Source of the DNA: Angustibacter luteus
GTDB lineage: Bacteria > Actinomycetota > Actinomycetes > Actinomycetales > Angustibacteraceae
Length of the DNA stretch: 64,000 nucleotides
NCBI RefSeq assembly: GCF_039541115.1
Contig: NZ_BAABFP010000004.1
Span: 434,001-498,000 of the forward strand
Reading direction: 5' to 3'
Below, piece by piece: positions 10,147-52,214 of the stretch. Within the stretch, counting starts at the first letter, position 1. Every line of letters begins with the position of its first letter. Both the position numbers and the translations under genes were made by a program. Below the pieces are notes generated by a model. It was not told the origin of the DNA. It saw only the letters and a program-made list of their open reading frames with translations, and made no database searches.

Positions 10147-11400
10147 GTGAACCCTGAGAACTCTCTGCTCATCAGCCCGGACTCGCGGACGGGCCGGGTC
10201 GGGGTACCCGCCGGCTCGACACAGGACCCCGTCCTCGTACGCGCCCCACGAGACGAGATGGACCGGCGGTGGGCGCTCGTGCGCGCGCACCTCACCGCCC
10301 AGGGTCTGGATGCAGTCATCTGTCTGGGTTCTGACGACAGTCTGTCCGGGAGCATCCGGTGGCTGTGCGACTTCGGTGCGCCTGCCTACATGAAGGTGGC
10401 GTTGTTCTTCGGTGAAACCCCAATGACGGTCATCGAGCACGGCGCTATCTCAGGGATTCGCGAAGTGTCTCCTGCCGACGCCAACACGCCGGGCGTGGGT
10501 CGCGTCAGGGCTGTGTCCGCGTTCAAATCGGTCAGACAAACGCTGGAGTACGAAGCGCGCGCCGTGGTCGAGGAGTTCAGCGCGCGGGGCATTGAGAACG
10601 TGGGGCTGGTGAGGCCCGGGAGCATGCCGTCCGCGTTCATCGATCGACTCAAGCAAGACCTACCGCAGGTGTCGTGGTCGGACGAGACCGCCGCCTTCGA
10701 CAGCATGATGGCGATCAAGAGCCCGGTCGAGCTCGACAGTCTGCGCGAAGCATGTCGCGTGCAAGACCAAGCCTTCGAGCGCTTGCTGGGGCAGGTTCGT
10801 CCCGGCGTTCGTGAGGTCGAACTCATGGCCTCGGTCGAGCGTGAGCTTCGGTTGCGGGGAGCACTGGACGGAACGTTGGGATGCGGGTCCGCTCCTGCAG
10901 GGCAGCCGACCGGAATGCGCTCATGGCGCGCACAGAACCGGGAGTTGCAGAAGGGGGACACATTCACCGTATTGATCGAGCTCTCCAACGCCGGCGGCTA
11001 CTACGCCGAGCTGGCCCGTCAGGTGGTGCTCGGACGGGCCAGTCACGAACAACGGCGCGCCTTCGAGGTCGTCCGCGAGGCGCAAGCGGAGACGGCGGCT
11101 AGCCTCTACGCCGGTGCGAGCTGCAGCGCGCTGGCGGGGGCGCACGACGCGTTCATGGAAGCGCGTGGTTACGAACGGGAAACGCGCCTATTGGGGCACG
11201 GACAGGGCTATGACATGGTCGAGGCTCCGCTGCTGCGAGCCGACGAAACGATGGCCCTGAGGGCGGACATGTTCGTGTCCGTGCACCCCTCCGTCGTCAC
11301 CCCATCCATGTTTGTGTTCTTGTGCGACAACTACGTTGTGCAGCCCGCCGGGCCAGCCGTTCGCCTTCACGACACGCCTCAGGAACTCTTCGAGGTGTGA
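10147..11400 (+). CDS. M24 (Xaa-Pro peptidase/creatinase fold) family protein
   Basis: IKSPVEL, GYYAELAR, GHGQG pita-bread domain motifs. Confidence 0.8.
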   Translation: MNPENSLLISPDSRTGRVGVPAGSTQDPVLVRAPRDEMDRRWALVRAHLTAQGLDAVICLGSDDSLSGSIRWLCDFGAPAYMKVALFFGETPMTVIEHGAISGIREVSPADANTPGVGRVRAVSAFKSVRQTLEYEARAVVEEFSARGIENVGLVRPGSMPSAFIDRLKQDLPQVSWSDETAAFDSMMAIKSPVELDSLREACRVQDQAFERLLGQVRPGVREVELMASVERELRLRGALDGTLGCGSAPAGQPTGMRSWRAQNRELQKGDTFTVLIELSNAGGYYAELARQVVLGRASHEQRRAFEVVREAQAETAASLYAGASCSALAGAHDAFMEARGYERETRLLGHGQGYDMVEAPLLRADETMALRADMFVSVHPSVVTPSMFVFLCDNYVVQPAGPAVRLHDTPQELFEV

Positions 11401-11538
11401 CGTTGCATGGCGAGGCTGCCTCTCGATCCTCCGGCCGCACCTCGGAAACTTGGCTCGACCTTCGCTGCCGTCGCTCTGACCCGCTGAGTTCGGATCCAGT
11501 CCGACCTCAACGCTGAGAATGTGGAGGGGCTCGACCGA

Positions 11539-12513
11539 TCAGCTGGTGGCGTCAGCCACCAGCCTCGCCGCCTCCTCTGGCTCAATTCCACCAACTCCCA
11601 GGCCCGCGACAACCTGTCCGTCACGGGTCAGGGGAACTCCGCCCCCGACGTACAACTCCCGATGGGGGTGCAGAGTCGCCAAAGCGAATGCCTGCCCCCC
11701 ATACAGATCCGCAAGGCGATGGCTGGGCATGCCATGCCTAGCTGCGGCCCGGGAGACTGCCCCGGCAACGTGCGTTGCAGCAGCGACGGCTCCGTCCATG
11801 TGGTCCTGCTGGATCGGATCACCCCCCCGGTCCACCACGACTGTCGCCACCTCGAGGCCACGCGACGCCGCCAAGGTGAGGACGTGATCGCAAACTTCTT
11901 TGGCCCAGAGCAACTCGGGCTGATGCGAGGCAGTCGGTGCCGGCTTCATGCCGAGGCTGTCCTCCGCGGGCACCACGAGATCCCCGAAACGGTCCTTCCA
12001 GAGGATGGTGTCGTCCCCATGTTGGCCGACATAGGGACCGCCGAGCGCGTAGGAGATGATGAGATCCTCAGGATTTGCCGGACTCCCCTCAGCGCTGACC
12101 AACTCGGGCGCAACGCCCGCGGGCAGGAACGGACTGACCGTGGCGCCCGAGGCCGCGATGCCGCCGAGGATCTCGCCAGACTCCGTGAGGATTTGCATCC
12201 CGCCGCCGCCGGGAAAGACGGACTCTGGAGAGACCTGCATAAAGCCCCAAGCCATGATGGCTGGAGCTGCCGCGATCCTGTCCTTGTGGACACCGCTTGC
12301 GAGTTGTTGTGTCCCCGAGATCCAGGCCTTGGAAACCGCACGCCCCATCCCGCCCGGCCCACCGAAGTCGAGCCGTGAGGCGCTTATGAGGGTCCCACTC
12401 GCTCCGACAACCGCGATGCTCCCGCGAACCCCAAGCTGCTCCGCCTTGTCGACGGCTCGAGAGACCATGGCGCGGGCATCGTCCAAGCGGACATCGCGTG
12501 GGTGAGGAGTCAT
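11539..12513 (-). CDS. GlcG/HbpS heme-binding family protein, tandem domains
   Basis: Two repeats: GGGMQI..GEILGGIAASG and GGGVPL..GQVVAGLGVGG. Confidence 0.75.
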   Translation of the reverse strand: MTPHPRDVRLDDARAMVSRAVDKAEQLGVRGSIAVVGASGTLISASRLDFGGPGGMGRAVSKAWISGTQQLASGVHKDRIAAAPAIMAWGFMQVSPESVFPGGGGMQILTESGEILGGIAASGATVSPFLPAGVAPELVSAEGSPANPEDLIISYALGGPYVGQHGDDTILWKDRFGDLVVPAEDSLGMKPAPTASHQPELLWAKEVCDHVLTLAASRGLEVATVVVDRGGDPIQQDHMDGAVAAATHVAGAVSRAAARHGMPSHRLADLYGGQAFALATLHPHRELYVGGGVPLTRDGQVVAGLGVGGIEPEEAARLVADATS

Positions 12514-26146: not shown

Positions 26147-27385
26147 GTGTCCGAACTACCACTGAGTGGAGTACGCGTCGTCGATCTGACACGTGCTCTG
26201 GCTGGCCCGTTCTGCACCTCACTGCTCGGCGACTTCGGTGCTGACGTCGTGAAGGTCGAGGGACTGCCGCTCGGCGACGCCACACGACACTGGCCGCCGT
26301 TCAATGGAGCGCGAAGCCTCTACTTCCTGAGCACGAACCGCAACAAGCGGTCGATTGCGCTCGACCTGCGCACGCCGGAAGCCAAGTCGATCTTGTCTGA
26401 CCTTGTCGCCGACGCCGACGTCCTCGTGGAGAACTTTCGCCCCGGTGTGCTGACCAAGCTTGGCTTGGACCCAGCACGGCTGCGGCAAGAGCGACCGGAC
26501 CTCGTGATCTCTAGCATCAGTGGATTCGGCGAGGTCGGCCCGATGAGTCAGGACGTCGGACTCGATCAGGTGGCCCAGGGCATGGCCGGGCTGATGTCGG
26601 TTACTGGTGCAGGAGACCAGACACCGATGAGAGTCGGCATTCCGGTGGTCGACCTCGCAGCCGGCATGCTCTCCGCCTTCGGGGTCGCCGCCAGCCTGGC
26701 TGGACGGGCGCACAATGGGCGCGCCAGCCGGGTGAACGCCTCGCTCCTTGAGAGCGCGATCTCGATGATGACGTTCCAAGCGCAGCGCTACCTCTCGCTT
26801 GGCGAAGTCCCCGATCCGCAGGGCAACGACCATCCATTGATCTCGCCGTACGGCACCTTCCAGGCATCCGACGGCAGCCTGAACGTCGCCGTTGGGTCCC
26901 AAGCCCAATGGGTGTCGCTCTGTGACGTGCTCGGGTCTCCGGAGCTCGCCTCGCGCCCCGAATACGCCGAGCCCGCGCAGCGCACACACAATCGCCGTGC
27001 GCTGTCAGATGAGCTCAACGCCCTCTTTATGACCCGGCCCGCCGATGACTGGATGGCGGCCCTGCGGCAAGTCGGGGTGCCATGCGGACCGGTGTACGCG
27101 ATGGACGAGGTCTTCGCGGATGCCCAAGTGCAAGCCCTCGGGATGGTTCGAACCGTCGGAGAAGGCCCGGAAGCCGATGTGCTCCTTCGAGGTCCCCTCT
27201 GGGTCGATGAGCAGGCCAGTGGAATCACCCGACGACCACCACTATTGGGTGAGCACAGCCGCGAGGTCCTTCACGAGCTCGGCTACGTCGACGACCTGGT
27301 GGACAACCTCGTGCGCCGCGGTGTCGTTGGAACGGCCGACCGGGACATCGCCGCTGCGCAGTCCACTGCGGAGGCCAGATCGTGA
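26147..27385 (+). CDS. CaiB/BaiF family III CoA-transferase
   Basis: LAGPFC, NRNKRS, VENFRPG, PPLLGEH. Confidence 0.92.
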   Translation: MSELPLSGVRVVDLTRALAGPFCTSLLGDFGADVVKVEGLPLGDATRHWPPFNGARSLYFLSTNRNKRSIALDLRTPEAKSILSDLVADADVLVENFRPGVLTKLGLDPARLRQERPDLVISSISGFGEVGPMSQDVGLDQVAQGMAGLMSVTGAGDQTPMRVGIPVVDLAAGMLSAFGVAASLAGRAHNGRASRVNASLLESAISMMTFQAQRYLSLGEVPDPQGNDHPLISPYGTFQASDGSLNVAVGSQAQWVSLCDVLGSPELASRPEYAEPAQRTHNRRALSDELNALFMTRPADDWMAALRQVGVPCGPVYAMDEVFADAQVQALGMVRTVGEGPEADVLLRGPLWVDEQASGITRRPPLLGEHSREVLHELGYVDDLVDNLVRRGVVGTADRDIAAAQSTAEARS

Positions 27386-29181
27386 GCGATGAGGCCGGTT
27401 CGCTGATCCTGTCCGAACCGGACCTACATTTCATGCTGTACGACTGGCTCGATGTCGAGAAGCTCACTGAGCATGAGCGATTTGCCGAACACTCGCGCGA
27501 GGTCTTCGATGCTGTGCTCGACCTGGCCGCCGATCTCGCGACGCTGAACTTCGCCCCGCACAATCGCCTCAGCGACCTAAATGAGCCGACCTTCGACGGT
27601 GCACACGTAGCCGTCATACCTGAGGTCGCGCAGGCGCTACAGGCCTACGGCAGGTCGGGTCTGCTCGGCAGCGCCATGGACGAAGCAGTCGGTGGCGGAC
27701 AGCTGCCGCAAGTCGTCGGTCGTGCATGCTTCACGTGGCTGCAGGCGGCCAACTCGGCCACGGCTGCATATCCACTACTCACCATGGGCAACGCCAACCT
27801 CCTGGCCACCTTCGGCACGCCACAGCAGATCGAACAATTCGTTCGCCCGATGGTCGAGGGCCGGTTCTTCGGCACGATGTGCTTGTCGGAGTCGCAGGCA
27901 GGCTCATCGCTCGGCGACGTGACCACCCGCGCAGTGCCGCAGCCGGACGGCACTTTTCGACTCTTCGGCGACAAGATGTGGATCAGTGGCGGCGACCACG
28001 AGATGAGCGAGAACATCCTGCACCTCGTGCTGGCGCGGGTCGAAGGAGCGCCCGCCGGCGTTCGGGGACTGAGTCTGTTTCTGGTGCCGCGCATACTCCT
28101 GGGCGAGGACGGCAGCCCGGGGCAACGCAATGACGTGATCGCCACCGGGCTGAATCACAAGATGGGCTACCGAGGCACCGTCAACGCCGTGCTGGCCTTC
28201 GGCAGCGGAAGCCACCTCCCCGACGGTGAGCCCGGAGCGATCGGTCAGCTGGTCGGAGAGCTCGGACACGGCCTCGATCACATGTTCCACATGATGAACG
28301 AGGCCCGGGTTGCAGTGGGCGCCAGCGCCGTCGGACTGGGGTACACGAGCTACCTGCACGCCCTTGCCTACGCGCGGGCTCGTTCGCAGGGGAGACTTCC
28401 TGGTCACAAGGATCCACGAACGCCTCAGGTCGCCCTCATCGTCCACCCGGACGTTCGTCGGATGTTGCTCGCCAGCAAGTCGTACGTCGAGGGCGGACTC
28501 GCCCTGGTTCTGTACGCCGCCAAGCTTCTCGACCTGAAAGCAATCGCCGACGACGAAGAAGAGGCTGCGCGCCTCGACCTCCTGTTGGGTGTGCTCACCC
28601 CGATCGTTAAGGCCTGGCCCTCACAGTGGTGCCGCAAGGCCAATGATCTCTCCATCCAGATACATGGCGGCGCCGGCTACACGCGGGACTTCCCGGTCGA
28701 ACAGTTCTATCGAGATGCTCGGTTGAACCCGATCCATGAAGGCACCGACGGCATACAGGCGCTGGACCTACTCGTGCGAAAGCTGGCGACGCCTACGCTG
28801 ACTGAGCTCGAGGTGCTGCGAGCATCCTGTCAAGCAACGATAGATAAGACTCCCGAGGAGCTTTCCGCCTTCGCGGGGCAGCTAGGCGGAGCTGTCGACC
28901 TTCTCGTTGGAGTGACACAGCGGTTGCGCGACGCTGGCGACCCACTGTTGCTCGCTGCTCAGGCCACTGCGTTCGCCGATGCGGCCGGACACATTGTGGT
29001 TGCCTGGATGTGGCTCGAGCAGATGATCGCTGCCCAACGTGGTGCCAACCGAATCCATGAGGGCAAGCGGCTGGCCGGTCGGTACTTCTTCGCCTACGAG
29101 CTCCCCATGGCAGTTCGCACACTCGACCTCGTCGACGATCACGACCGCATCGTCGTGGATCTGGATGACAACTTCCTGTGA
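27382..29181 (+). CDS. Acyl-CoA dehydrogenase
   Basis: GTMCLSE..AGS, KMWISGG, QIHGGAGY, PIHEGT. Confidence 0.92.
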   Translation: MSDEAGSLILSEPDLHFMLYDWLDVEKLTEHERFAEHSREVFDAVLDLAADLATLNFAPHNRLSDLNEPTFDGAHVAVIPEVAQALQAYGRSGLLGSAMDEAVGGGQLPQVVGRACFTWLQAANSATAAYPLLTMGNANLLATFGTPQQIEQFVRPMVEGRFFGTMCLSESQAGSSLGDVTTRAVPQPDGTFRLFGDKMWISGGDHEMSENILHLVLARVEGAPAGVRGLSLFLVPRILLGEDGSPGQRNDVIATGLNHKMGYRGTVNAVLAFGSGSHLPDGEPGAIGQLVGELGHGLDHMFHMMNEARVAVGASAVGLGYTSYLHALAYARARSQGRLPGHKDPRTPQVALIVHPDVRRMLLASKSYVEGGLALVLYAAKLLDLKAIADDEEEAARLDLLLGVLTPIVKAWPSQWCRKANDLSIQIHGGAGYTRDFPVEQFYRDARLNPIHEGTDGIQALDLLVRKLATPTLTELEVLRASCQATIDKTPEELSAFAGQLGGAVDLLVGVTQRLRDAGDPLLLAAQATAFADAAGHIVVAWMWLEQMIAAQRGANRIHEGKRLAGRYFFAYELPMAVRTLDLVDDHDRIVVDLDDNFL

Positions 29182-29536
29182 ATGTCGGCCTCCCCGGACA
29201 ATGGGTAGGTCATGAGGTCGAGTCGACCTCCAGATCCAGCTAGCAATACTCGCTCGCGTCCCAGACGCTGTCGGCGTAGTGCTCCATCGTGAACATCGCG
29301 GCACGAAGAAGCCGAACCTCAGAGCGGTCGAAGGTCAGGCTTCCGTCGTCGCTCCGTCGCATCGCTGGACCCTACGACTGTGATCGTCGAGAAGCAATCA
29401 GTTGCCGCTCATAGGCAAGACCGCGCACGGTCGGCGGCAGATCCGGGCGGCTTGGGAGCAGGTCCAAGGTCAGCAGACGAGTGGCGTTTTGCGCAGAACG
29501 ACGGCGCTGCGTCACGGGCCCGGCTAGCGTCGCCGC

Positions 29537-29842
29537 ATGCTCCTGCGCCGCCGCCCTGCCCTCCTGCTGTTCGTGTCGCTTGTGGTGCTGTTGTTCGGCG
29601 TGTGGCTACTGCTGGCTGAAAGCCCGCTTCTGAGGCCCTGGGAGCACCTGTCGGACGCGGATCTAGAGAGCTACCGCAAGGTCCTGCCCGAGACGTGTGG
29701 ATTGGTCTGCACTCTTGACTCGACGGATAGGCAGACGTTGATGGGCGCTGCGCTCACGGCGCTTGGCGTTGTCGGGCTCGGCTTCTCTGGCTGGGCCGCA
29801 GTGTCGAAGCGGCGCCACATCACTACCCCAAAGGCGTCCTAG
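29537..29842 (+). CDS. Small hypothetical membrane protein
   Basis: Two hydrophobic segments; TAGCGT -10-like hexamer 6 nt before ATG (leaderless-type). Confidence 0.55.
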   Translation: MLLRRRPALLLFVSLVVLLFGVWLLLAESPLLRPWEHLSDADLESYRKVLPETCGLVCTLDSTDRQTLMGAALTALGVVGLGFSGWAAVSKRRHITTPKAS

Positions 29843-29894
29843 GAGCCGCCCTCACCGCGGCAGATGAGTGCGTTTCATGTGGCACGATTTCGCC

Positions 29895-30167
29895 GTGGAC
29901 CGCGCCTGCTACGAGGAGATCGCCGGCATCCTGCACGGACTTCTGATCCGGCTGGATGACCGACTGCCTGGCAAGGACATCACGCTGATCGCGGAGTTCA
30001 TCGACGCGAACGAACTGGGTTTGGCCTTGGAGCAGTTGGCCGACGTACTGAGCGAGGACGAGAAGCCGCTCTCGCCAGAGGAGCGGGCCAACATACTTGC
30101 TCTCGTCGATCGCATGCAGATGGATGATCGAGTCCCTCACGCCTTGACCTTCTGTCCGGCGAGGTAG
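29895..30167 (+). CDS. MafI-like immunity protein
   Basis: EFIDANELGLALEQLADVLSE resembles the MafI family motif; GTG start 6 nt after CACGAT. Confidence 0.6.
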   Translation: MDRACYEEIAGILHGLLIRLDDRLPGKDITLIAEFIDANELGLALEQLADVLSEDEKPLSPEERANILALVDRMQMDDRVPHALTFCPAR

Positions 30168-30192
30168 CGCCCAAGGCGCGCCCGTGCACGCT

Positions 30193-30332
30193 CCGCGGCA
30201 GATCCGGGCGAGCGGTCGCCCTCACCGCGGCAGATCCGGGCGAGCGGTCGCCCTCACCGCGGCAGATCCGGGCGAGCGGTCGCCCTCACCGCGGCAGATC
30301 CGGGCGAGCGTAGGCGCCCTCAACGCGGCAGG
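30193..30332 (+). repeat. Tandem 32-bp repeat CGCCCTCACCGCGGCAGATCCGGGCGAGCGGT
   Basis: Units at 30217, 30249 and 30281 plus partial flanking copies. Confidence 0.95.
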
Positions 30333-30382
30333 AGCGGATGGCTACAGCCGCTGGTGCGGGGGGGGCGTCGGGTGACCCTCGC

Positions 30383-30853
30383 TCAGCGTTGCTTGCCCTC
30401 GCGGAACAGGCTCACGGCCTTCTGTATTCGCCGGGCACGGGTCTCCGGCGTCTTCGCGGAGTTGATGTTGTCTATGTGATAGCGCTGGATGCTGTTCGAC
30501 AGTCCATCGAAGAACGTCTGCGCTTCCTGATCGGCGGCCAGGGCGGCGGCGAAATCCTCCGGCACAATCACTTCGCGAGGCGCCGTGGCCACGGCGAGCG
30601 TCACGGTGACGGGATGTCCTGGTTCGAGGCCCGTTGCCTGCCTGACCGACGCGTTCACGCCGATCAAGTACGTCCCGCCCATGACAGCCACTGTGCTGCG
30701 GTAGCCGAAGCCGTCAAGATCCACATGCACCGCAGGGCGGCGTCCCGCGCCGAGTCGCTGGATCACATCGTCGGGGACGACGATGCCGGCCTTGCCCCCA
30801 GAGCCGGCGATCGTGGTTCGGAATGCAACAGCTTCGGCGGCACCTTCAGTCAT
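30383..30853 (-). CDS. DUF1905 + YdeI/OmpD-associated domain protein
   Basis: YRSTVAVMGG, VPEDFAAAL, AKTPETRARRI; AAGGAG RBS. Confidence 0.88.
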   Translation of the reverse strand: MTEGAAEAVAFRTTIAGSGGKAGIVVPDDVIQRLGAGRRPAVHVDLDGFGYRSTVAVMGGTYLIGVNASVRQATGLEPGHPVTVTLAVATAPREVIVPEDFAAALAADQEAQTFFDGLSNSIQRYHIDNINSAKTPETRARRIQKAVSLFREGKQR

Positions 30854-31036
30854 GTGTACTCCTTATGAACGGCCCGCCTCCGGGCTTCGAACAGTCGGTA
30901 GACCGCCGTCCACGCCCGCACTCATCGCTGTGCAGAGGAGGCTAACTCCCGATAGCCGCCACCGGCGGCCGCGAGCGATAAGCGCTCGTCGGCGTAGCCG
31001 CCCTCAACGCGGCATGTCGGGCGTCGAAATCGGCGG

Positions 31037-31639
31037 TCAGTGACCCAGTGAGGCGAGCAGGCTCATGGTGAGGTTGACCTGGTCTTCGAGCTCAAGACGA
31101 CCCTGGGACCAGGATTCCCACGGCCCGTCTGCGCTGAGGAAGCGGTCGGAGTGACTGGCGCCGGTTCTGCGGTCGACGCTGACAAGGGCGGCCATTGCCC
31201 ACCACTGGTCGTAGCGCGCCTCGACGTCAGGGAGCCAGCGATCCAAGTAGGCAGTGAGCTGCTCTGTGGCCAGGGTGGTTCCAATGCTCGCCAGTGCGAT
31301 GCAGTAACCCTGGCCTGAGTACACAAGCTGGCTCTCGATCAGTAGCTCACCGACTAAGGGCACGAAGTGCTCGCGTCTGGAGGCGGCGACGAGGTACGCC
31401 GCCGTCAGCCGACTTCGCCATTCGGAGGAAAGCAGAACTCCGACCGCGTCGTCGTTGATCTCGCCCGCGTCATTAAGCAGCGCATACACGAACCGAAGGC
31501 GCTCCTGCTCGGGCTTCGCCAGGTAGTTTCCATGAAGCAGTTCCAGGTATCGCCGGTCGGGCATCACGAATCGCTCGAAGAGTCCCGTCAACTCGGGGTC
31601 GTCGTCGTAGGGCATGGGGATCTCGCGCTCGTCTGGCAC
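31037..31639 (-). CDS. DUF6000-like hypothetical protein
   Basis: RRYLELL, EWRSRLTAA, S..VYSGQGYC.ALA, YLDRWL, YDQ.WA; start uncertain. Confidence 0.65.
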   Translation of the reverse strand: MPDEREIPMPYDDDPELTGLFERFVMPDRRYLELLHGNYLAKPEQERLRFVYALLNDAGEINDDAVGVLLSSEWRSRLTAAYLVAASRREHFVPLVGELLIESQLVYSGQGYCIALASIGTTLATEQLTAYLDRWLPDVEARYDQWWAMAALVSVDRRTGASHSDRFLSADGPWESWSQGRLELEDQVNLTMSLLASLGH

Positions 31640-31888
31640 TTCGTCAGCATGCCGGTCCAAGGTGGGTCACGCACTCATCTCGGCAGATCCGGTCGTGCCT
31701 TGGCGCATCCAACTTTGACGAAGAGTCCGCGGCGACTGTCTGGCGGTGGCACGCCTCGGCGCCGTCAGCCGGGCCAGGACGGTGGACGGGCCGGCGCAAG
31801 GAACTGCCTCACGCAGGGGTGAATTCGCGCGGCTGCGAAGTCGGGTGCCCTCCTACTGTGTGGACCTCGCCGAAGACGAGTTCAGCTC

Positions 31889-33142
31889 TCAGCGCCGGCC
31901 TACCGGTGCGGACTCGGAGAGCCTTGAGCTTGGGACCCATCCTGGTTGGTACGCCGAGGACGGGGACGCGCCGAGGTGAGCACGGAGTGCCGCAGTAGCC
32001 GCGCGGGCCGCATGCCCCTGAGCCGTCCGTCCCTGGGCGGCGCGCAGCCGTGCGACTGCGACGACCAGGTCCACCAGGCGCTCGAGCGAACGTGCCTCCG
32101 GCGGCATCCCGTGATTGTTCGCCCGGAGTGCCTTGGCCGCGGATCTGAGCAGTCTTTGATGGTCCATCAGTCCAGGGGGCCGATTGAAGGGTTCTCGACG
32201 TGCGCGCTCAAACGTCGCAGCCGCCTCGGTCAGCGGACCCCCTCGTCGTCCTTCCTGCCTGCGGGCCGCCAGTTGCAGTAGATCCGCTGTATCCGAAGCG
32301 AGGCTGGCGGGCTCAGCCGCCCAGACGCTGCTGAGCTTGGTCCAGGACAAGTCAGTGGCAAGCTTGCTGCCGCCGTACCAGACCGGATGGCCCGCGGCGG
32401 TGCGATGTCCGGGCAAGGCGACTGAGTACCCGGTGATTTGCCCCTGAGTGTTCTGACTGCGCCGCGGCCGGACGAGCAGCCCCGCCCCGCTGAGTCGCTG
32501 AAGAAAGTCCTCAGGGTCGGCCGCGGCCGCCGCGGCGACGCGGACCTCACGCAGGAGCTGCATGCGTGCTGGCACGGACTCGCCTTGGCGGGCGGTCTTC
32601 TCCGTCTCAGCCCGGGTGGGGCGCTTGTCGGCTGTGCGGTCCCGCGGCGGTGTGACGAGGAGGCCGTACTCGCGTTCAGCCCGTCGGCAGGCCTCACCGA
32701 GACGGTAATAGTCGTTGGACGTCGACACTCGGCGTCCGTCCTGCCTGGCCAGCGTGACGACGACATGGATGTGGTCGTCGGCGTGCCGCACGGCGACCCA
32801 TCGGCAACCGGAGTCCTCCTCGTCGCGCCGGGCAAAACCCGTGCGATGTACGACGTCGCGCGCCACGGCGGCCCATTCGTCGTCGGTCAACCGACGGTCG
32901 GACGGCGCGGTGCGCAGTGAGCAGTGCCAGACGGGCTGCTCGGGTAGCCGTGACCCGGTGCGGAGAGGCTGCTCGAGTAGCCCGGTGAGGGGACCGAATT
33001 GGCCGTGGGGTTCGAGTCGCCTTGTCCGGCCGTCCCATGCGGCGACCAGGTGAGGGTCCGTGTGCTCGTTCGCCCGTCCCGGCCCGTAGAGGTAGCGCAG
33101 CAGTCCTCCCGCATGCGCTCCACGGACTACCTTGCCGATCAT
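31889..33142 (-). CDS. Relaxase/mobilization nuclease (MOBP type)
   Basis: N-terminal LLRYLYGPG (catalytic Tyr), VWHCSLR, WVAVRH.DDHIHVV HUH motif. Confidence 0.9.
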   Translation of the reverse strand: MIGKVVRGAHAGGLLRYLYGPGRANEHTDPHLVAAWDGRTRRLEPHGQFGPLTGLLEQPLRTGSRLPEQPVWHCSLRTAPSDRRLTDDEWAAVARDVVHRTGFARRDEEDSGCRWVAVRHADDHIHVVVTLARQDGRRVSTSNDYYRLGEACRRAEREYGLLVTPPRDRTADKRPTRAETEKTARQGESVPARMQLLREVRVAAAAAADPEDFLQRLSGAGLLVRPRRSQNTQGQITGYSVALPGHRTAAGHPVWYGGSKLATDLSWTKLSSVWAAEPASLASDTADLLQLAARRQEGRRGGPLTEAAATFERARREPFNRPPGLMDHQRLLRSAAKALRANNHGMPPEARSLERLVDLVVAVARLRAAQGRTAQGHAARAATAALRAHLGASPSSAYQPGWVPSSRLSESAPVGRR

Positions 33143-33412
33143 CTGGACATGGTGCCATCTACTTCAGCAGATGCGCGCCACGCGGCTGTCAGCTGAGCGT
33201 ATTCAGTTGGGCCAAGTTCAGACTGGCTGGCAGAAGCGTTGTCTGCCACATGTGGCTATCGGGGCTAAGTGCTGGTCACCCTTGGTGCGGATGGTCAGGC
33301 AGGGCGGTTGATTCGACCGCGCCCGGTCGCCACTCTCAGCCTGCATCTGGGTACCAGATGCATATCTTGCTCCGCTCTAGTGGCCGGCTTACCATCCCAG
33401 GCAGTCGCCTTG

Positions 33413-33628
33413 TCACCGGTCGCCGAGGAGGTCCAGCGGAGGGACGTCGAGCTGCTCGGCGAGCGACTCGAGGGTCTGGAGGGTGAGGTTTCGTTCGCCC
33501 CGCTCGAGTCCACCCAGGTAGGTGCGGTGCACGCCCAGCTGATCTGCGAACGCCTCCTGGCTCAGTCCGGTGTCCTCCCGGATCTGGCGGAGGTTCCGTC
33601 CAACTAGCTTCTGAAGGTCGCCGCGCAC
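33413..33628 (-). CDS. XRE-family HTH regulator, controller (C) protein-like
   Basis: 71 aa; SQEAFAD.LGVHRTYLGGLERGERN. Confidence 0.88.
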   Translation of the reverse strand: MRGDLQKLVGRNLRQIREDTGLSQEAFADQLGVHRTYLGGLERGERNLTLQTLESLAEQLDVPPLDLLGDR

Positions 33629-33647
33629 GTCGTTGAGCCTGTGATGC

Positions 33648-33681
33648 TGCTACTTTTAAGTCTACAGACTGATAAGTAGCA
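33648..33681. promoter_or_regulatory. 34-bp palindromic operator (C-box-like)
   Basis: TGCTACTTTTAAGTCT-AC-AGACTGATAAGTAGCA; arms match at 14/16; about 20 bp upstream of the XRE start. Confidence 0.75.
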
Positions 33682-33703
33682 CCGATGGCCTTGGAGGTTC
33701 GCG

Positions 33704-34015
33704 GTGGAACGCTCGCCAAGTCCCAGTGGCCTTGCCCTCGTGGGCAGCTCTCTGGCCGCCGCAGGTCCGAGGATCTGTCTGGCCTCCATCGACGACTACC
33801 GGCAGGGGCGATTGACGGGGGAGTGGGTCAGTCTCCGGAGGGACGCTGCGCTGGTACGTGCGGTCGTCCGATCAGTACTCGACCGCACTGTCACATCGGT
33901 GAGCCTTGGGGTGGGCGTGTTCGACGTCGAGGGTGCGTCCTTGAACGACGCCGCGGTCCGCGAGCTGCTCAGTCCTGTTCTCGGTATCGAAGGTCGACGG
34001 CGGCTAAACGCCTGA
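33704..34015 (+). CDS. Hypothetical protein
   Basis: ORF divergent from XRE with GGAGG RBS; RICLASIDDYRQGRLTGEWV loosely recalls the ArdA N-terminus. Confidence 0.4.
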   Translation: MERSPSPSGLALVGSSLAAAGPRICLASIDDYRQGRLTGEWVSLRRDAALVRAVVRSVLDRTVTSVSLGVGVFDVEGASLNDAAVRELLSPVLGIEGRRRLNA

Positions 34016-35313: not shown

Positions 35314-36401
35314 GGGTCCACCTGCTCGCTGTCTCGATCGAGGATCTGGACGGCGCGGCGAACGACGGTGGCGCGGGTGACTGGCATCTGCTCGGTCCCG
35401 AGCTCTGCTCGGGCCTGAGCCTGCAGGGCGACGCGTCGTCCGCCGATGTCGGCCAGCCTCGCCTCGGCGGCCGCCAGCGACTGGGCGTCGTCCGCACTGG
35501 CGACATCGCTAGGGACGGCGTCCCACCAGGGGCCGGCCTCCGCGACCCGGACGGGGGAGCGGCTCACCTTGTCGGCGGCCACGGCGAGCAGCGCGGCGAC
35601 GACGTCGCAGGCTGGCCAGCCGCGGTTGACCACAGCCATCCGGATCGCCACGGCCAGGCACTGCGGCGCCCATCGCCCCCCGGGCTGTCCGAGGGCGCGC
35701 CGGGCCGCGATGCAGCGCTGGGACAGCTCGTCCAGGCCAGCCGACCCGTCGATCCCGCACTCTCGCAGCAAGTCATCGTTGGCCACCTCCACCGCCGTGC
35801 CCCGCCCCGCCCCGACGGGCGCGGGATCGCGAACTGGTGGCGGTGGTTCTTTGCTCTGGGTAGAGATCTCTCGGTCGGGCCGCACTTGTGCGGCCAGTCC
35901 CACCGCAGAAGTGCGGCCAGGGGTGGCCGCAGATTTGCGGCTACCCGAAATCACCGAACGACGTGCTGGCTGACCCGCCGGCGGAGTGGCCGCAGAACTG
36001 CGGCCACCCCCACCGGCCGGCATCGCCGGGACCGGAGGCGCCGAGGTGCGCACGTGGTAGCGGTTGGACAGGAACTGGCGACCCGCGCGGCGGTGCTCGA
36101 CTCGCACCATGCCGGCCTCGACCAGGTGCCGCATCGCCCGATCCACGGCGTCGACGGACCGGCGCATTCGTCGGGCCAGCGTCGGCCTAGCCGGCATGCG
36201 GTGCCCGGACCCGTTGCCATAGCGCAGCAGCAGCGTGTAGAGCCGGAAGGCGCCGTCCGGGATGTCGGCGTCGATCACCCACTCCGGCACGATCGCGAAC
36301 CGCTGTTCCTCGACCAGCAGCGACCCCTCGTCGCCGACATCGGAACCGGGCGGATCGTGATCCGAGGCGGTATCCAGCTGGTCAGGTGGGTCTGAGGGCA
36401 T
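35310..36401 (-). CDS. HTH-domain replication-initiator-like protein
   Basis: FAIVPEWVID..AFRLY.LL..PARPTLARRM..SVD.VDRA..HL.EAG..SNRY; start 36401 with GGGAG RBS. Confidence 0.7.
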   Translation of the reverse strand: MPSDPPDQLDTASDHDPPGSDVGDEGSLLVEEQRFAIVPEWVIDADIPDGAFRLYTLLLRYGNGSGHRMPARPTLARRMRRSVDAVDRAMRHLVEAGMVRVEHRRAGRQFLSNRYHVRTSAPPVPAMPAGGGGRSSAATPPAGQPARRSVISGSRKSAATPGRTSAVGLAAQVRPDREISTQSKEPPPPVRDPAPVGAGRGTAVEVANDDLLRECGIDGSAGLDELSQRCIAARRALGQPGGRWAPQCLAVAIRMAVVNRGWPACDVVAALLAVAADKVSRSPVRVAEAGPWWDAVPSDVASADDAQSLAAAEARLADIGGRRVALQAQARAELGTEQMPVTRATVVRRAVQILDRDSEQVDP

Positions 36402-36599
36402 GACGAGATCTCCCATCGGCGCATGGGCTCTGAACGAGCTGGGAAAGGGGCTACGCGCTAACCGCGCGCTAGGAAATGCACGGGACGTGCACGCTCGAGA
36501 CATCCCCGGCCGGACGAACCGACACCACCGCACGGGACGAAACCGCAGGTCAGCGACCTGTGGCGGCTTTCCCGGTTCCAGCCGGACAACCGCCAGGCC

Positions 36600-36643
36600 G
36601 ACTACGGATCAGAAGGTTAGGGGTTCGAATCCCTTCGGGCGCG
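36600..36643 (+). mobile_element. att site: displaced 3' half of tRNA-Arg(ACG), right boundary of an integrative element
   Basis: GACTACGGATCAGAAGGTTAGGGGTTCGAATCCCTTCGGGCGCG gives anticodon loop ACG, T-arm and acceptor 3' strand; no 5' half upstream. Confidence 0.88.
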
Positions 36644-36676
36644 CACCGTCTTGAGACAGCGGTACTACTACGGATC

Positions 36677-36712
36677 AGGCCCCTGACCTGCGGAAACGCG
36701 GTTGGGGGCCTT
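36677..36712 (+). terminator. Hairpin downstream of the tRNA fragment
   Basis: AGGCCCC-TGACCTGCG-GAAA-CGCGGTTG-GGGGCCT followed by TGTT. Confidence 0.55.
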
Positions 36713-36837
36713 GTTCGTGCCGCCTTTTGCGGGTCCGCTTGCCCCCGCAGCCCGGTCACCCGTCGGTTGTCTGGAGGAACGAGCCCGAGTTGACGGAGGG
36801 GCCTCCCTCGAGATCGGGCTGGGCTATCTGCCAGGGA

Positions 36838-37497
36838 TCAGTGGTCCGGCGCGGCGGCCTGCTCGGGCATCGCCGACCGCGGTGATGGGCCGAGGACGAA
36901 GACAAGGGCGAGCAGCACCGTGAGCACAATGGTCAACCAGGACGCGACCAGAGCCAACGCGGTGGCCACCGCGTAGCCGATCAGTCCGGACAGGTATCTG
37001 ATGTCGACGTCGCGGACGAACGCTGCCGACACGCCTGGGACCATCAAGCCACGCCGGCTCACCCGGCGCCAGATCAGGTTGAACGCCACGGCACTGAGCG
37101 TCAGCGTCGCGCCGTAGAGCAGCGAAGCGGTCTGGCCGTCGTCCCCGCTGGTGTGCTCGGCGATCAGGCCGGTCGGCAACGGCAGGAAGGCGACAGAAGC
37201 CAGCAGCAGCAGGTTGAGCAGCAGGAGCATCTGGTCGACGCGGGCGACCAGCCGGAACAGCGCGTGGTGGTTGGCCCAGATGATGCCGATCTGCAGGAAG
37301 GTGGCGGCGTAGGCGGCCATCTGCGGGAGCGCCTCGTGCAATGCGTGCGTCAGGGACTCACCATCGGTGGGGTCCACCCGGACGTCCAGAATGAGCAGCG
37401 TGATCGCGATGGCCAGGACGCCGTCGCTGAACGCCTCCAGTCGCCCAGCGTCACCGCGCAGCGCGTTGCCGCTCCACCAGCGACTCTGCAAGCTCAT
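36838..37497 (-). CDS. TMEM175 family (DUF1211) K+ channel-like protein
   Basis: RLEAFSDGVLAIAITLLIL signature; W.NHH. Confidence 0.92.
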   Translation of the reverse strand: MSLQSRWWSGNALRGDAGRLEAFSDGVLAIAITLLILDVRVDPTDGESLTHALHEALPQMAAYAATFLQIGIIWANHHALFRLVARVDQMLLLLNLLLLASVAFLPLPTGLIAEHTSGDDGQTASLLYGATLTLSAVAFNLIWRRVSRRGLMVPGVSAAFVRDVDIRYLSGLIGYAVATALALVASWLTIVLTVLLALVFVLGPSPRSAMPEQAAAPDH

Positions 37498-48755: not shown

Positions 48756-50033
48756 GTGACCGAGCCAACGCCCGTCCCGCTCGAGGACGTCGACCTGGCG
48801 GACCTGGACCGGTTCGCCCGCAACGAGGGCTGGGGACAGTTCGACACCCTGCGGCGCGAGGCCCCGGTGTTCTGGAACGCCGAGGCGGCCCCGAGCTCCG
48901 GGTTCTGGGCGGTGACGCGGCACGAGGACATCTGCGCCGTCGACCGCGACCCGGAGACCTTCACGTCGACGAAGTTCACGAACCTCGAAGAGGTGGACGA
49001 CGACCTGCAGGACCTGCGGCGCTCGATCCTGGAGACCGACGGCCTGCGGCACCGAGCGTTGCGGAAGCTGATCCAGCGCGAGTTCAGCCAGGGCAACCTG
49101 CTGCGCAACTACGAGGAGTTCCTGCGCGGGCTCACCAAGGCCACCGTCGACGCGGCGCTGCCCAAGGGGGAGTTCGACTTCGTCAAGGAGATCAGCGCCG
49201 ACTTCCCGATCCAGGTCCTGGTGCGGTTGCTCGACGTCCCGGTGGCGGACACCGGCAAGCTGATCGACTGGGGCAACCAGATGATCGGCAACACCGACCC
49301 GGACTACGCCGAGCACCTGCTCGCCGACCCGGAGAGCGAGCAGTACAAGCACCTGCCGTTCCGGTCGCCGGCGGCGCTCGAGGTGTTCGAGTACGGGCGC
49401 GCACTGGCCCGCGAGCGCAAGGGCGGTGACGGCACCGACCTGATCAGCATGCTCGTGAACCGGGTGCCGGAGGACGGCGAGCCGTTGTCCGCCACCGACT
49501 TCGACAACTACTTCCTGCTCCTGGTCGTGGCCGGCAACGAGACGACCCGGCACACGATCAGCCAGGCCATGCTGGCGCTCATCGAGCACCCGGACCAGCT
49601 CGCCCTGCTCCAGGAGCGACCCGAGCTGATCCCCGGCGCGGTCGAGGAGTTCCTGCGCTGGGCCTCGCCGGTCTACCACTTCCGGCGTACGGCGACCCGC
49701 GACGTGGAGCTCGGTGGCGCGCAGATCAAGGAGGGCGACAAGGTCGTCATGTGGTTCGCCTCCGGCAACCGCGACGAGAGCGTCTTCGACGAGCCGTACC
49801 GGTTCGACGTGACCCGTCAGGACATCGACCACGTCACGTTCGGCAAGGGCAGCCCGCACGTCTGCCTCGGGAACAGCCTGGCGCGCATGGAGATCCGGCT
49901 CATGTTCACCGAGCTGATCCCGCGGCTCGCGAGCATCGAGCTCACCGGCGACGTCCGCCGGGTGCGCAGCAACTTCGTCAACGGGATCAAGACCCTTCCG
50001 GTCCGCGTCACCACCCGCCAACCTCCCCCGTGA
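48756..50033 (+). CDS. Cytochrome P450
   Basis: AGNETT I-helix, EEFLR, FGKGSPHVCLG heme motif; AGGAG RBS. Confidence 0.95.
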   Translation: MTEPTPVPLEDVDLADLDRFARNEGWGQFDTLRREAPVFWNAEAAPSSGFWAVTRHEDICAVDRDPETFTSTKFTNLEEVDDDLQDLRRSILETDGLRHRALRKLIQREFSQGNLLRNYEEFLRGLTKATVDAALPKGEFDFVKEISADFPIQVLVRLLDVPVADTGKLIDWGNQMIGNTDPDYAEHLLADPESEQYKHLPFRSPAALEVFEYGRALARERKGGDGTDLISMLVNRVPEDGEPLSATDFDNYFLLLVVAGNETTRHTISQAMLALIEHPDQLALLQERPELIPGAVEEFLRWASPVYHFRRTATRDVELGGAQIKEGDKVVMWFASGNRDESVFDEPYRFDVTRQDIDHVTFGKGSPHVCLGNSLARMEIRLMFTELIPRLASIELTGDVRRVRSNFVNGIKTLPVRVTTRQPPP

Positions 50034-50145
50034 TCATGCACGTTCGCCCCACCCCCCGCGGTGATCATGCACGTTCGCCCCGCCACCCTGGCGGTGATCA
50101 TGCACGTTCGCCCCACCACCCCGCCGTGATCATGCACGTTCGCCC
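50030..50145 (+). repeat. 4 copies of GTGATCATGCACGTTCGCCC
   Basis: Exact copies at 50030, 50061, 50094 and 50126 with 11-13 bp C-rich linkers. Confidence 0.97.
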
Positions 50146-50149
50146 GCGC

Positions 50150-51064
50150 TCACCAGCGCCGACGTCCGATCTGCGGCTCGAGGCCCAGCAACTGGCCCAC
50201 GGCGTGCTCCAGCGCGAGCGACGGACCCCACACGTGGCCCCGGTGGAAGCCGACGACCTCCCAGCCGAACCCGGCCCGCAGGTGGTCGCGGCGGCGAGCG
50301 TCGGCCAGCTGCTCTGCCGGTGACCCGTGGTGCTCGTCCCCGTCGTACTCGACGCCCCGCCTGGCGTCCTCGAAGCCGAGGTCCAAGCGATAGAGCACGT
50401 GGTTCCGGGCGTTCCGGATGGGGATCTGCGCCGTCGGTCGCGGGAAGCCGGCGTCGTGCAGTCGCAGTCGCAGCCACGACTCCCCGAAGGACTCCGTGAG
50501 CGGTTCGACCAGGCCGAGCAGCTCACGACCCTGGGCGACGCCGCGGTGGCCGGCGAACCGTTCGATCTCGCTCAGCGCTCGTGGCGCGTCGACGAGCCCG
50601 CGGCTCGCCAGTCCGTCGAGAGCCGCCAGCGCCATGGGCCGCGGGAGCAGCCGGGCCAGGTCCAGGGTGGTTCGCAAGGTCGACGTCCGAAGTAGTCCGT
50701 GCGACTCGACGACGTCGCCAGAACCCATCGGAGCGGTGTAGCACCGGATGCCCGGCCGCCGGACCGGCGTGCGCCCGGCCGGCAGGACGCACTCGATGGT
50801 CGGCAGGCTGCGTTCTGAGCCGGGAAGGCGCAGGTCGCCGATGCCGCCGAGCCAGGCGACGGTGCCGCGGCAGAGCACAGCGTCGGCGGGCAGGAGGAGC
50901 GCGGCCGCCTGGGCTCGCAGCGCCAGGGTGTCGGCGGCAGCGACGTCGACGTAGACCCCCCGAAGCATCTCGCGGGCGCGACCGGCCGCGACCAGTCGGT
51001 ACGCCCGCCGTCCGGTGAGGTCCCGGGCAGCGCGTGCGGTGAAGGGTCGGCCGTCATTGAGCAT
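50150..51064 (-). CDS. AbiEi-like/DUF559 (Vsr-like) nuclease-domain protein
   Basis: TS.LRT.LDLAR; ES.GESWLR; RLDLGF..GVEYDGDEHH..D.RR..GWEV. Confidence 0.75.
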   Translation of the reverse strand: MLNDGRPFTARAARDLTGRRAYRLVAAGRAREMLRGVYVDVAAADTLALRAQAAALLLPADAVLCRGTVAWLGGIGDLRLPGSERSLPTIECVLPAGRTPVRRPGIRCYTAPMGSGDVVESHGLLRTSTLRTTLDLARLLPRPMALAALDGLASRGLVDAPRALSEIERFAGHRGVAQGRELLGLVEPLTESFGESWLRLRLHDAGFPRPTAQIPIRNARNHVLYRLDLGFEDARRGVEYDGDEHHGSPAEQLADARRRDHLRAGFGWEVVGFHRGHVWGPSLALEHAVGQLLGLEPQIGRRRW

Positions 51065-51116
51065 CCGGACAGGATGGGACGTCGGAGCGTCCAGGCGCTG
51101 TGGTCATCCACAGGCG

Positions 51117-51204
51117 GGGCGAACGTGCATGATCACGGCGGGGGGGGCGGGGCGAACGTGCATGATCACGGCGGGGGGGGGGTGGGGCGAACGTGCATGA
51201 TCAC
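51117..51204 (-). repeat. 3 inverted copies of the same 20-bp repeat
   Basis: GGGCGAACGTGCATGATCAC at 51117, 51150 and 51185 with G-rich linkers. Confidence 0.97.
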
Positions 51205-52214
51205 CGGGGGGTTTCGTCGGCGACCATCTGGCGCACGATCTTGCGCACCTGCAGCGCGGCAGCGTCGGCGCTGACGCTCACCGTGGGTCGCGGTCCGTCC
51301 CTGTCGAGCACGGCCTGCATGGTCTCCAGGATCGCCTGCACGCGCCGGTAGTACTGCTCGAACATCGGCCGCAGGGTCTGCTCCGCGTCCGGTTGGAGCG
51401 CGAAGTCCCGGCTGACCCGCCACAGGTGGCGCGTGTGGGTGGCGTCGATCGGCGTGAGGGCGTGGGTGAACCGGAAGGTGCAGGCGGGACCACCGCCGTC
51501 CTCGCCGGCCTCCCACCCGTCCACCCAGAGACCCGGAGTGACGAACTGCCCGAGCTCCCGCTGCCGGAACAGCGTGCCCGCCGGACGTCCCACCAGCTCG
51601 CTGTGCCAGGCGGTGAGCTCGGCCGGCGGGTAGTCGCGGGAGAACGACACACTCGTCTCGCTGACCTCGACGTCGAGCCGGGGCGGCGCTGAACGCAGGA
51701 CCGGCGGGGCGAAGTCGGGGTCGACCACCGTGATGTGGCTGATGTCGGCGAAGTTCTCCTGCAGCAGGTCGATGGCCGCGTGGGTCTCCCACTGCGAGCC
51801 GAAGCTCGCCCAGGCCGGGTCGGCAAGCCACGGCACGGACGGCGCGGTGCGCAGTGAGGCTCGCGCCGGGTCGCCGAGCCACGCCCAGACGAAGGTGCCG
51901 TCGTCGTGCACCGGGAACGCCCGTACCCGCGCGCCGACCGGGATGCGGTCCTGGGTGGGCACTCGCACGCACGCCCCGGACGCGTCGTACGCGAAGCCCG
52001 TGTAGCCGGACACGATGGTGTCGCCGTCGACCCGGCCCAGGCTCAGCGGGTAGGGCCGGTGCGCGCAGCGGTCCTCCAGGGCGACGGCGCGCCCGTCGGA
52101 GACCCGGAAGAGGACGACGGCCTGGTCGACCGCGCGCCGACCGAGCGGAGTGCCGGTGACCTCGTCGGACGTCGCCGCGACGTACCAGCAGTTGCGGGGG
52201 TAGCTGCGGGACAT
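51201..52214 (-). CDS. VanA-like Rieske oxygenase subunit with degenerate metal ligands
   Basis: YPRNCWYVAA, LEDRCAHR..PLS, THALTP VanA-like motifs. Confidence 0.85.
   Translation of the reverse strand: MSRSYPRNCWYVAATSDEVTGTPLGRRAVDQAVVLFRVSDGRAVALEDRCAHRPYPLSLGRVDGDTIVSGYTGFAYDASGACVRVPTQDRIPVGARVRAFPVHDDGTFVWAWLGDPARASLRTAPSVPWLADPAWASFGSQWETHAAIDLLQENFADISHITVVDPDFAPPVLRSAPPRLDVEVSETSVSFSRDYPPAELTAWHSELVGRPAGTLFRQRELGQFVTPGLWVDGWEAGEDGGGPACTFRFTHALTPIDATHTRHLWRVSRDFALQPDAEQTLRPMFEQYYRRVQAILETMQAVLDRDGPRPTVSVSADAAALQVRKIVRQMVADETPR

Follow-up and report, generated by a model that had tools for sequence, protein, structure and literature searches.

The stretch analyzed here, hereafter the window, comprises 64,000 nucleotides of the Angustibacter luteus genome (C4:434001-498000; the source genome, G000, amounts to 4.16 Mb in 11 contigs, with 72% GC). 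Near the middle of the window lie four small genes, each of which sits between two copies of a 26-bp site made of two 10-bp arms and a 6-bp core. The ensemble is probably a four-cassette array belonging to an integron-like family of Actinomycetota, built by site-specific recombination at this core-type site. Its components are listed below in window coordinates; A and B' designate the left and right arms of the canonical site, A-core-B' (CGCCCTCAAC-GCGGCA-GATCCGGGCG), and site scores are those of the position matrix described after the list.

29288..29313, + strand: weak site, possibly decayed, at the left array edge; CGTGAACATC-GCGGCA-CGAAGAAGCC, core intact, arms poor, below 12 bits
29424..29449, + strand: site 1; CGCACGGTCG-GCGGCA-GATCCGGGCG, left arm variable, right arm canonical B', 24.1 bits
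29537..29842, + strand: cassette gene 1; 101 aa, two hydrophobic stretches, no family match
29847..29872, + strand: site 2; CGCCCTCACC-GCGGCA-GATGAGTGCG, canonical left arm A, cassette-type right arm, 29.0 bits
29877..30167, + strand: cassette gene 2; MafI-family immunity protein, 96 aa from ATG (NCBIfam NF033691, E 1.6e-13, 50.2 bits, cut-off 31)
30185..30210, + strand: site 3; TGCACGCTCC-GCGGCA-GATCCGGGCG, cassette-type left arm, right arm B', 28.5 bits
30217..30306, + strand: sites 4-6; three identical A-core-B' units with a 32-bp period and linker AGCGGT, 34.7 bits each, read as empty landing-pad units
30315..30340, + strand: site 7; CGCCCTCAAC-GCGGCA-GGAGCGGATG, left arm A, cassette-type right arm, 28.4 bits
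30383..30853, - strand: cassette gene 3; YdeI/OmdA and DUF1905 protein, 156 aa (PF13376, E 1.3e-22; PF08922, E 3.2e-17)
30917..30942, + strand: probable decayed site closing cassette 3; CGCACTCATC-GCTGTG-CAGAGGAGGC, below the 12-bit threshold
30999..31024, + strand: site 8; CGCCCTCAAC-GCGGCA-TGTCGGGCGT, preceded by the linker-like GGCGTAGC, 18.1 bits
31037..31660, - strand: cassette gene 4; DUF6000 protein, 207 aa from TTG, with an in-frame ATG at 31615 (E 5e-59)
31670..31695, + strand: site 9, at the right array edge; CGCACTCATC-TCGGCA-GATCCGGTCG, core variant TCGGCA, 32.6 bits

The sites were detected by two procedures. A search of the 64-kb window with the consensus CGCMCTCAHC-GCGGCA-GATCCGGGCG, allowing up to three mismatches, returned six matches, against 0.00 expected from 100 dinucleotide shuffles. 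A position matrix trained on 155 unique sites taken from other genomes only, and used with a cut-off of 12 bits, identified exactly nine sites (starts at 29424, 29847, 30185, 30217, 30249, 30281, 30315, 30999 and 31670), all on the + strand, with scores of 18-35 bits and a span of 29424-31695. Between 30185 and 30340 the copies are arranged in tandem, amounting to 4.3 units with a 32-bp period. An initial annotation of this DNA, made from the letters alone, had reported about nine co-oriented copies bracketing four genes (a membrane protein, a MafI-like, a YdeI/DUF1905 and a DUF6000-like protein). Co-orientation is real, since all nine matrix sites lie on the + strand where chance predicts 0, and the bracketing agrees with both the coordinates and the family matches. 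The near-palindrome around GCGGCA noticed in the copy at 29847 is also present. The two additional weak copies, on the other hand, fall below 12 bits in the matrix, but the one at 30917-30942 retains the left arm of site 9, CGCACTCATC, without a change. Finally, a -10-like hexamer had been proposed 6 nt before the start of three genes. This holds for one of them (TAGCGT at 29525-30, upstream of the gene 1 ATG at 29537), while the YdeI gene has AAGGAG, 5 nt before its ATG, instead. A simple promoter scan gave 0 sites, and self-contained expression of the cassettes is a weakly based idea.

The architecture of the site was defined from 334 sites distributed over 47 loci, each locus containing three or more co-oriented sites. 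An asymmetric 6-bp core, GCGGCA or TCGGCA, is surrounded by two 10-bp arms that are imperfectly inverted and have the general form CGYNCKSAWC. The core G-C-G-G-C-A is conserved at 90-100%, and arm positions 1, 2, 3, 5, 8 and 10 are mostly conserved, as are their mirror positions. This is the layout of tyrosine-recombinase core sites, in which inverted arms of about 10-13 bp flank an asymmetric spacer of 6-8 bp. Several arm types were distinguished, namely A (CGCCCTCAAC), B (CGCCCGGATC), CGCACKCWYC, CGCGCGATCA and CGTCCGCATC, and a site whose two arms are of matching types is a near-palindrome, as seen at 29847 in the window and at L013:4970 in another genome. The two ends of a run of sites are not equivalent. 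Run-opening sites have a variable left arm (which still conforms to CGC.C..A.C at 68-95%) and a B' right arm conserved at 94-98%; run-closing sites have a left arm A conserved at 92-100% and a variable right arm. In other words, the arms that face a gene vary and those beside the 8-bp linker are invariant. Doublets 32-35 bp apart are common, with the structure (variable left arm)-GCGGCA-GATCCGGGCG-AGCGTAGC-CGCCCTCAAC-GCGGCA-(variable right arm). Among the short spacings, 137 of 167 are exactly 34 bp, and the linker AGCGTAGC is found in 124; the long spacings, 120 in number, have a median of 858 bp. In some genomes the 34-bp unit forms pure tandem runs that contain no genes and reach 20-28 copies.

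Across G000, 89 positions match the matrix at 12 bits or more, of which 56 fall into four loci that make up less than 1% of the genome, with all sites on one strand within each locus:

Locus 1, the window array on C4: nine sites, + strand
Locus 2, C5:845.29-847.98k: one to two cassettes between doublets
Locus 3, C2:1093-1100k: a weak group
Locus 4, the large array, C8:545.5-562.95k: 17 kb, 35-41 sites, about 23-30 cassettes

The 33 remaining matches are divided between the strands (18+/15-) as by chance. An independent detector based on mismatches placed 51 of its 84 matches in the same four loci. Site orientation is constant within a locus regardless of gene orientation, and GC content is lower in the arrays (65-66%) than in the genome (72%). 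In the large array, 23 gaps exceed 100 bp (median 523 bp, range 222-2509). Its cassette genes are small, unrelated and in both orientations; many are open frames without a family, and the others encode two glyoxalase/bleomycin-resistance proteins and members of the NUDIX, SDR, His_Phos_1, SUKH_6, DUF6869, DUF7660 and PGPGW families. A dispersed repeat of the REP/BIME type, with hundreds of copies in both orientations, is ruled out by this clustering and by the restriction to one strand per locus; scatter of that sort was what the initial annotation had named as fatal to its reading. A CRISPR-like array is ruled out as well, since the spacings of 222-2509 bp contain genes and the pure runs are devoid of spacers. 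Two strong single sites stand isolated outside the arrays, at C7:112161 (minus strand, 26.1 bits) and C8:379608 (plus strand, 19.3 bits); both could represent relics or secondary sites of insertion.

When one genome per species was scanned, at least 124 stretches with a site match were returned. Among the matches listed, loci with several sites belong to Nocardioides, Cellulomonas, Humibacillus, Angustibacter and many uncultured Actinomycetota, plus one record labelled Limnocylindria. The single matches in other phyla (for example L029, L055, L095, L109, L123 and L128) correspond to chance or to one conserved gene, and were excluded from the array count. Of 400 genomes sampled evenly from the class, just two besides G000 had clear arrays, G111 (19 matches) and G413 (6). 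This sample includes three unpublished genomes, on which no claim made here rests.

Evidence that whole arrays are insertions was provided by comparison with genomes of the same genus. The 25.2-kb segment C8:541,936-567,141, which contains the large array, is replaced in the relative G003 by 1.5 kb, the flanks being 85% and 81% identical. G003 possesses its own array of about 12 sites elsewhere, which is itself an insertion relative to G000 C2:419.9-422.3k, so that the two genomes carry arrays at different chromosomal places and with different cassettes. The motif gave no match in G001, G002 and G004, and G005 has one match with two mismatches. For genes in the outer parts of the C8 island, 82-90% matches are scattered over G003, one of them beside a decayed doublet. 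As for the window, its region has almost no DNA match in four genomes of the genus, and the fixed four-gene order at homologous loci that would have spoken against gene capture was looked for and not found.

If cassettes move by recombination at the core, homology between shared cassettes should stop there, as the initial annotation had anticipated. It does stop at sites, and the clearest cases have the break exactly at the core. Between the glyoxalase cassette C8:545522-545980 and a copy in the G003 array, identity is 90.6%; homology begins at the first base of GCGGCA in both, and the left arms are unrelated. A NUDIX cassette common to L054 and L075, which come from two different metagenome-assembled genomes, is 84% identical over 488 bp. 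It starts with GCGGCA followed by its own right arm, GTTGCGGACG, and ends with CGCGCTGTCA-TCGGCA plus two bases, and the sequences outside it are unrelated on both sides. The gene-adjacent arms are thus specific to this cassette and travel with the gene. Homology between L023 and L057 ends inside the core, and that of the pairs L020/L063 and L018/L065 ends at the core. The contigs L119 and L127, both from a single metagenome bin, share a cassette start (99.5% identity) that lies behind two site copies in one case and five in the other, with different upstream cassettes; the difference could reflect recent cassette movement, array duplication or strain variation. Tandem-unit artefacts aside, homologues of G000 cassettes were found in other fetched arrays only for glyoxalase (G003), DUF6869 (L116) and, weakly, PGPGW (L012). 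The octamer CACGACCG precedes several of the G003 sites.

A recombinase gene is lacking in the window, as had been noticed, and searches found no dedicated one in the rest of G000 either. A candidate is nevertheless available from other genomes, where a Xer-like tyrosine recombinase of 307 aa is encoded in or beside the arrays. It contains a full-length catalytic domain (PF00589, positions 3-170 of 172, E 5e-24) and, in the L048 copy, the N-terminal domain PF13495, and its scores stay far under the cut-offs of the models for XerC, XerD, XerA and the integron integrase. For the latter, array-associated recombinases obtain 49.5-59.7 bits on TIGR02249 (cut-off 265) and 33.7-37.9 bits on PRK15417 (cut-off 435). 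At E<=1e-30, recombinase matches exist in 15 of 34 array-bearing genomes, 11 of these at 65% identity or more; adding two further array genomes, G111 with a match and G413 without, brings the count to 16 of 36. By comparison, a control tyrosine recombinase from G000 is found in 0 of the 36. Matches are present in 5 of 60 relatives of G000, and reach 65% identity in two only, as a fragment in the G003 array and as fragments in G055.

Wherever the context of the recombinase gene was fetched (9 of 9 cases), sites lay nearby, some of them abutting it and the most distant about 8 kb away; in G111 a tandem run is found 1.5 kb from the gene. Several copies have a TCGGCA-core site that begins one base past the stop codon, with a second site 40-240 bp upstream. 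The recombinase gene is therefore bracketed like a cassette, by direct sites in L054, L068 and L008 and by inverted ones in others. Inverted site pairs were seen only around some recombinase genes, with TCGGCA cores at L135:7008-9729, L140:8526-9574 and L137 ~10763-11830 (reverse-strand coordinates); the recombinase and its flanking sites may form an invertible or self-mobile module. The family is very large: scoring of 8,000 candidates yielded more than 6,231 clusters at E<=1e-40. Its members are usually 307 aa long and have generic names only. Among the recombinases of G000 itself, six Phage_integrase matches were recorded, none beside an array, and PF00239 (serine recombinases) had no match. 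Three tyrosine recombinases of this genome were considered as the array enzyme and set aside: C7:329274-330290 is absent from five genomes of the genus and from the 36 array genomes, C4:420573-421850 is the integrase of a tRNA-Arg element described below, and C8:369.2-369.9k is only 30% identical to the candidate.

A pathway can be inferred from these data. A circular cassette carrying one site with its own two arms would recombine with a canonical A-core-B' site by strand exchange in the core, and the inserted gene would end up flanked as A-core-(own right arm) gene (own left arm)-core-B'. The tandem 34-bp canonical units would serve as a landing pad, and excision of a cassette would leave one extra 34-bp unit. 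The likely enzyme is the 307-aa Xer-like recombinase, array-borne elsewhere. Since G000 has no intact copy of it, its arrays are probably orphans, comparable to CALINs (clusters of cassette sites lacking a recombinase gene, see below), and would be mobile only with the enzyme supplied in trans. An orphan, integron-like cassette array with core-type sites is the best reading of the window.

A number of observations weigh against this interpretation. Recombination is deduced here from comparing sequences, neither a circle nor a pair of empty and filled alleles having been observed. The array genes are in both orientations, unlike those of integrons and of the rAID-1 elements of Bacteroidales. 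The prominence of arms A and B' is partly built in, because foreign loci were fetched with an 18-mer consisting of arm A plus the core and the detector requires one near-canonical arm; the asymmetry between run-opening and run-closing sites is not a product of this detection. The breakpoint count is modest: for 30 stretches of homology that link different array loci, 13 of the 120 ends fall within -20..+25 of a core, compared with 5.4 +/- 2.3 (maximum 16) in 2000 random draws, and a wider count, diluted by non-array loci, gives 21 of 225 ends against 8.3 +/- 2.7. In several shared cassettes the homology fades out 10-60 bp before any recognisable site is reached. As regards the enzyme, 20 of the 36 array genomes searched gave no recombinase match, no intact candidate was found in G000, that of G003 is a fragment, and G055 has recombinase fragments yet no motif match. 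Lastly, the G003 array (L130:12896-14503, L131:1876-3030) contains two IS30-like copies (HTH_38 and rve domains) that are 99.6% identical, along with two IS110-family copies that are 99.9% identical, implying that some rearrangement is driven by transposases.

One alternative is that the sites are passive intergenic repeats, shuffled by homologous recombination, slippage or insertion sequence activity, with no dedicated site-specific recombinase. Tandem runs of 32/34-bp units are indeed the expected product of slippage or unequal exchange, up to the longest, of 20-28 units, and the modest enrichment of breakpoints, the IS30- and IS110-family copies in G003 and the genomes devoid of the candidate enzyme (G000 and 20 of the 36) all fit. 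What makes passive shuffling unlikely is the position of the breaks. The clearest pairs break at the 6-bp core and differ in the outer 10-bp arms, which leaves too little common sequence for homologous exchange. Repeats of this kind would also not account for gene-side arms that accompany their own gene, as in the NUDIX cassette, for the strict co-orientation of sites within each array, or for the Xer-like recombinase gene located in or beside arrays.

If site-specific recombination at the core is retained, one may still ask whether the host XerC/XerD proteins, rather than an enzyme of the system's own, use the sites, as in pdif modules or Xer-exploiting elements; the G000 arrays would then be active. 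The 10-6-10 layout resembles that of Xer sites, G000 encodes strong XerC- and XerD-like proteins with no dedicated recombinase, and near-identical sites are found in many genera. The proposal is nevertheless quite improbable. Known pdif sites resemble dif and alternate in orientation. Like them, the array sites are short two-arm sites of the Xer type with a 6-bp spacer, and they bracket gene modules that have no adjacent recombinase gene; unlike them, they are direct throughout, and a distinct Xer-like family is found together with the arrays. Moreover, a search of G000 with a 10-nt XerD-arm motif located a single dif-like sequence, at C5:482343 on the minus strand (...CGCCGATAAT-GAACAT-TATGTCATTC), a candidate chromosome dimer resolution site. 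The array site shares neither arm nor core with this candidate and does not resemble a chromosomal dif (11-6-11), in agreement with the earlier remark that it does not look like a canonical dif; the system is thus unlike pdif, on account of both this difference in sequence and the direct repetition of its sites. Arrays are also rare, with two clear cases (G111, G413) in 400 genomes of the class, whereas Xer is expected to be near-universal.

That the sites are protein-binding or transcript-level signals (operators, terminators, REP-like elements) gathered between foreign genes and without a role in gene movement is very improbable: they are intergenic, GC-rich partial palindromes, and one gene start overlaps a site arm, but their orientation is constant whatever the gene direction, sites and doublets folded as single strands do no better than shuffles (z -0.2 to -1.1), T-tracts are absent, Rfam gave nothing beyond a chance snoRNA match (E 0.9) in 27000-34000 and no match in 36300-37000, the sites are confined to islands instead of being spread genome-wide, and pure tandem runs free of genes exist.

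Returning to the cassette array interpretation, its relationship to described systems can be specified. Integron attC sites are 57-141 bp long, and fold as hairpins from long imperfect inverted repeats; the array sites are double-strand-type core sites of 26 bp, and attC-like hairpins are ruled out by the fold scores given above, which agrees with the initial annotation. Arrays of co-oriented sites are common to both systems (nine sites in the window, 35-41 in C8), as are small, unrelated, mostly single-gene cassettes of similar size (median 858 bp here) and a recombinase, here a candidate, from the Xer/IntI branch of the tyrosine recombinases. The low bit scores of that candidate speak against an IntI with its specific extra domain, and its gene is itself bracketed by sites. 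Integrons have attI and the Pc promoter beside intI, followed by co-directional cassettes; no integrase adjoins the G000 arrays, their genes are in mixed orientation, and tandem 34-bp empty units are present. In the survey of Cury et al. 2016 (PMC4889954), none of the Actinobacteria genomes examined had a complete integron, and arrays lacking a recombinase were termed CALINs; the arrays described here also occur without recombinase.

The closest described analogue, going by its published description, is rAID-1 of Bacteroidales (Ross et al., bioRxiv 10.1101/471110). In that account, a XerD-family recombinase is associated with intergenic repeats reminiscent of integrons, skewed GC and arrays that comprise up to 31 genes, abound in predicted immunity genes and are carried on mobile elements. 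The arrays of A. luteus likewise contain immunity-type genes (MafI, SUKH_6, DUF6869) and have a low GC content, 65-66% against 72%. They differ from rAID-1, as described there, in phylum, in having a defined 10-6-10 core site and tandem landing units, and in a recombinase gene that is not fixed at the 5' end; the G000 array ends lack a recombinase, and the genes are not co-directional. As to the form of the site, loxP, FRT and the shufflon site sfx also have inverted arms around an asymmetric, directional spacer of 6-8 bp, and sfx has one conserved and one free arm. These systems resolve, invert or integrate single segments and are not known to build arrays of captured genes. Literature searches, including with the exact site strings, turned up no description of the array site or of the system.

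The window array is carried by a larger element. A tRNA-Arg(ACG) gene with an integrase gene beside it lies at C4:420475-420548, about 13.5 kb before the window start, and the exact 30-mer of its 3' end is present at C4:420514 and again at C4:470610. Two features of the window belong to the corresponding element:

31889..33142, - strand: MobA/VirD2-type relaxase of the carrier element (PF03432, E 2.6e-13)
36610..36639, + strand: right-end repeat, an exact 30-mer copy of the tRNA-Arg(ACG) 3' end (C4:470610)

The element spans C4:420475-470640 (its part inside the window being 1-36640), about 50 kb of low GC content (64-65%; 63-67% for window bases 1 to about 34,000). The integrase is located at the far end, outside the window, and the relaxase, NikA-like, DUF2637 and HTH genes at the near end. 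Cargo genes encode aromatic-ring hydroxylases, an IclR regulator, a branched-chain ABC transporter, malate synthase G, a CoA-transferase and an acyl-CoA dehydrogenase. Because the repeats of the tRNA-Arg 3' end enclose the catabolic genes, the array and the relaxase, the window array is cargo of an integrative, mobilisable element. The carrier would thereby offer arrays a route of spread between hosts. The initial proposal of a gene-capture platform next to the relaxase of a mobile element is thus supported, the mobile element being this tRNA-Arg integrative element.

A broader hypothesis, which I favour by a small amount, is that Actinomycetota have a widespread gene-capture system of their own. 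It would combine a 26-bp double-strand core site, a multi-copy landing pad of tandem 34-bp units and a Xer-like recombinase of 307 aa, which would be a cassette in its own right and whose family has thousands of members in soil metagenomes; arrays would ride on integrative conjugative or mobilisable elements, and immunity, detoxification and accessory genes would be pooled across genera. If this is correct, a major phylum of soil bacteria and antibiotic producers possesses an independent counterpart of the pooling and shuffling of genes by integrons. Much of the turnover of actinobacterial accessory genes, including immunity and detoxification genes, would become traceable through a simple 26-bp site readable from sequence, and a very large family of 'XerD-like' proteins would acquire a function. 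The hypothesis would also account for the three to four islands of small foreign genes in this genome, and would provide a compact site/recombinase pair to try as a genetic tool in high-GC bacteria.

The window contains two other tandem arrays, at 50030-50154 and 51113-51211, with a unit of 33-35 bp and 3-3.6 copies each. They are reverse complements of one another, and about 960 bp separate them.

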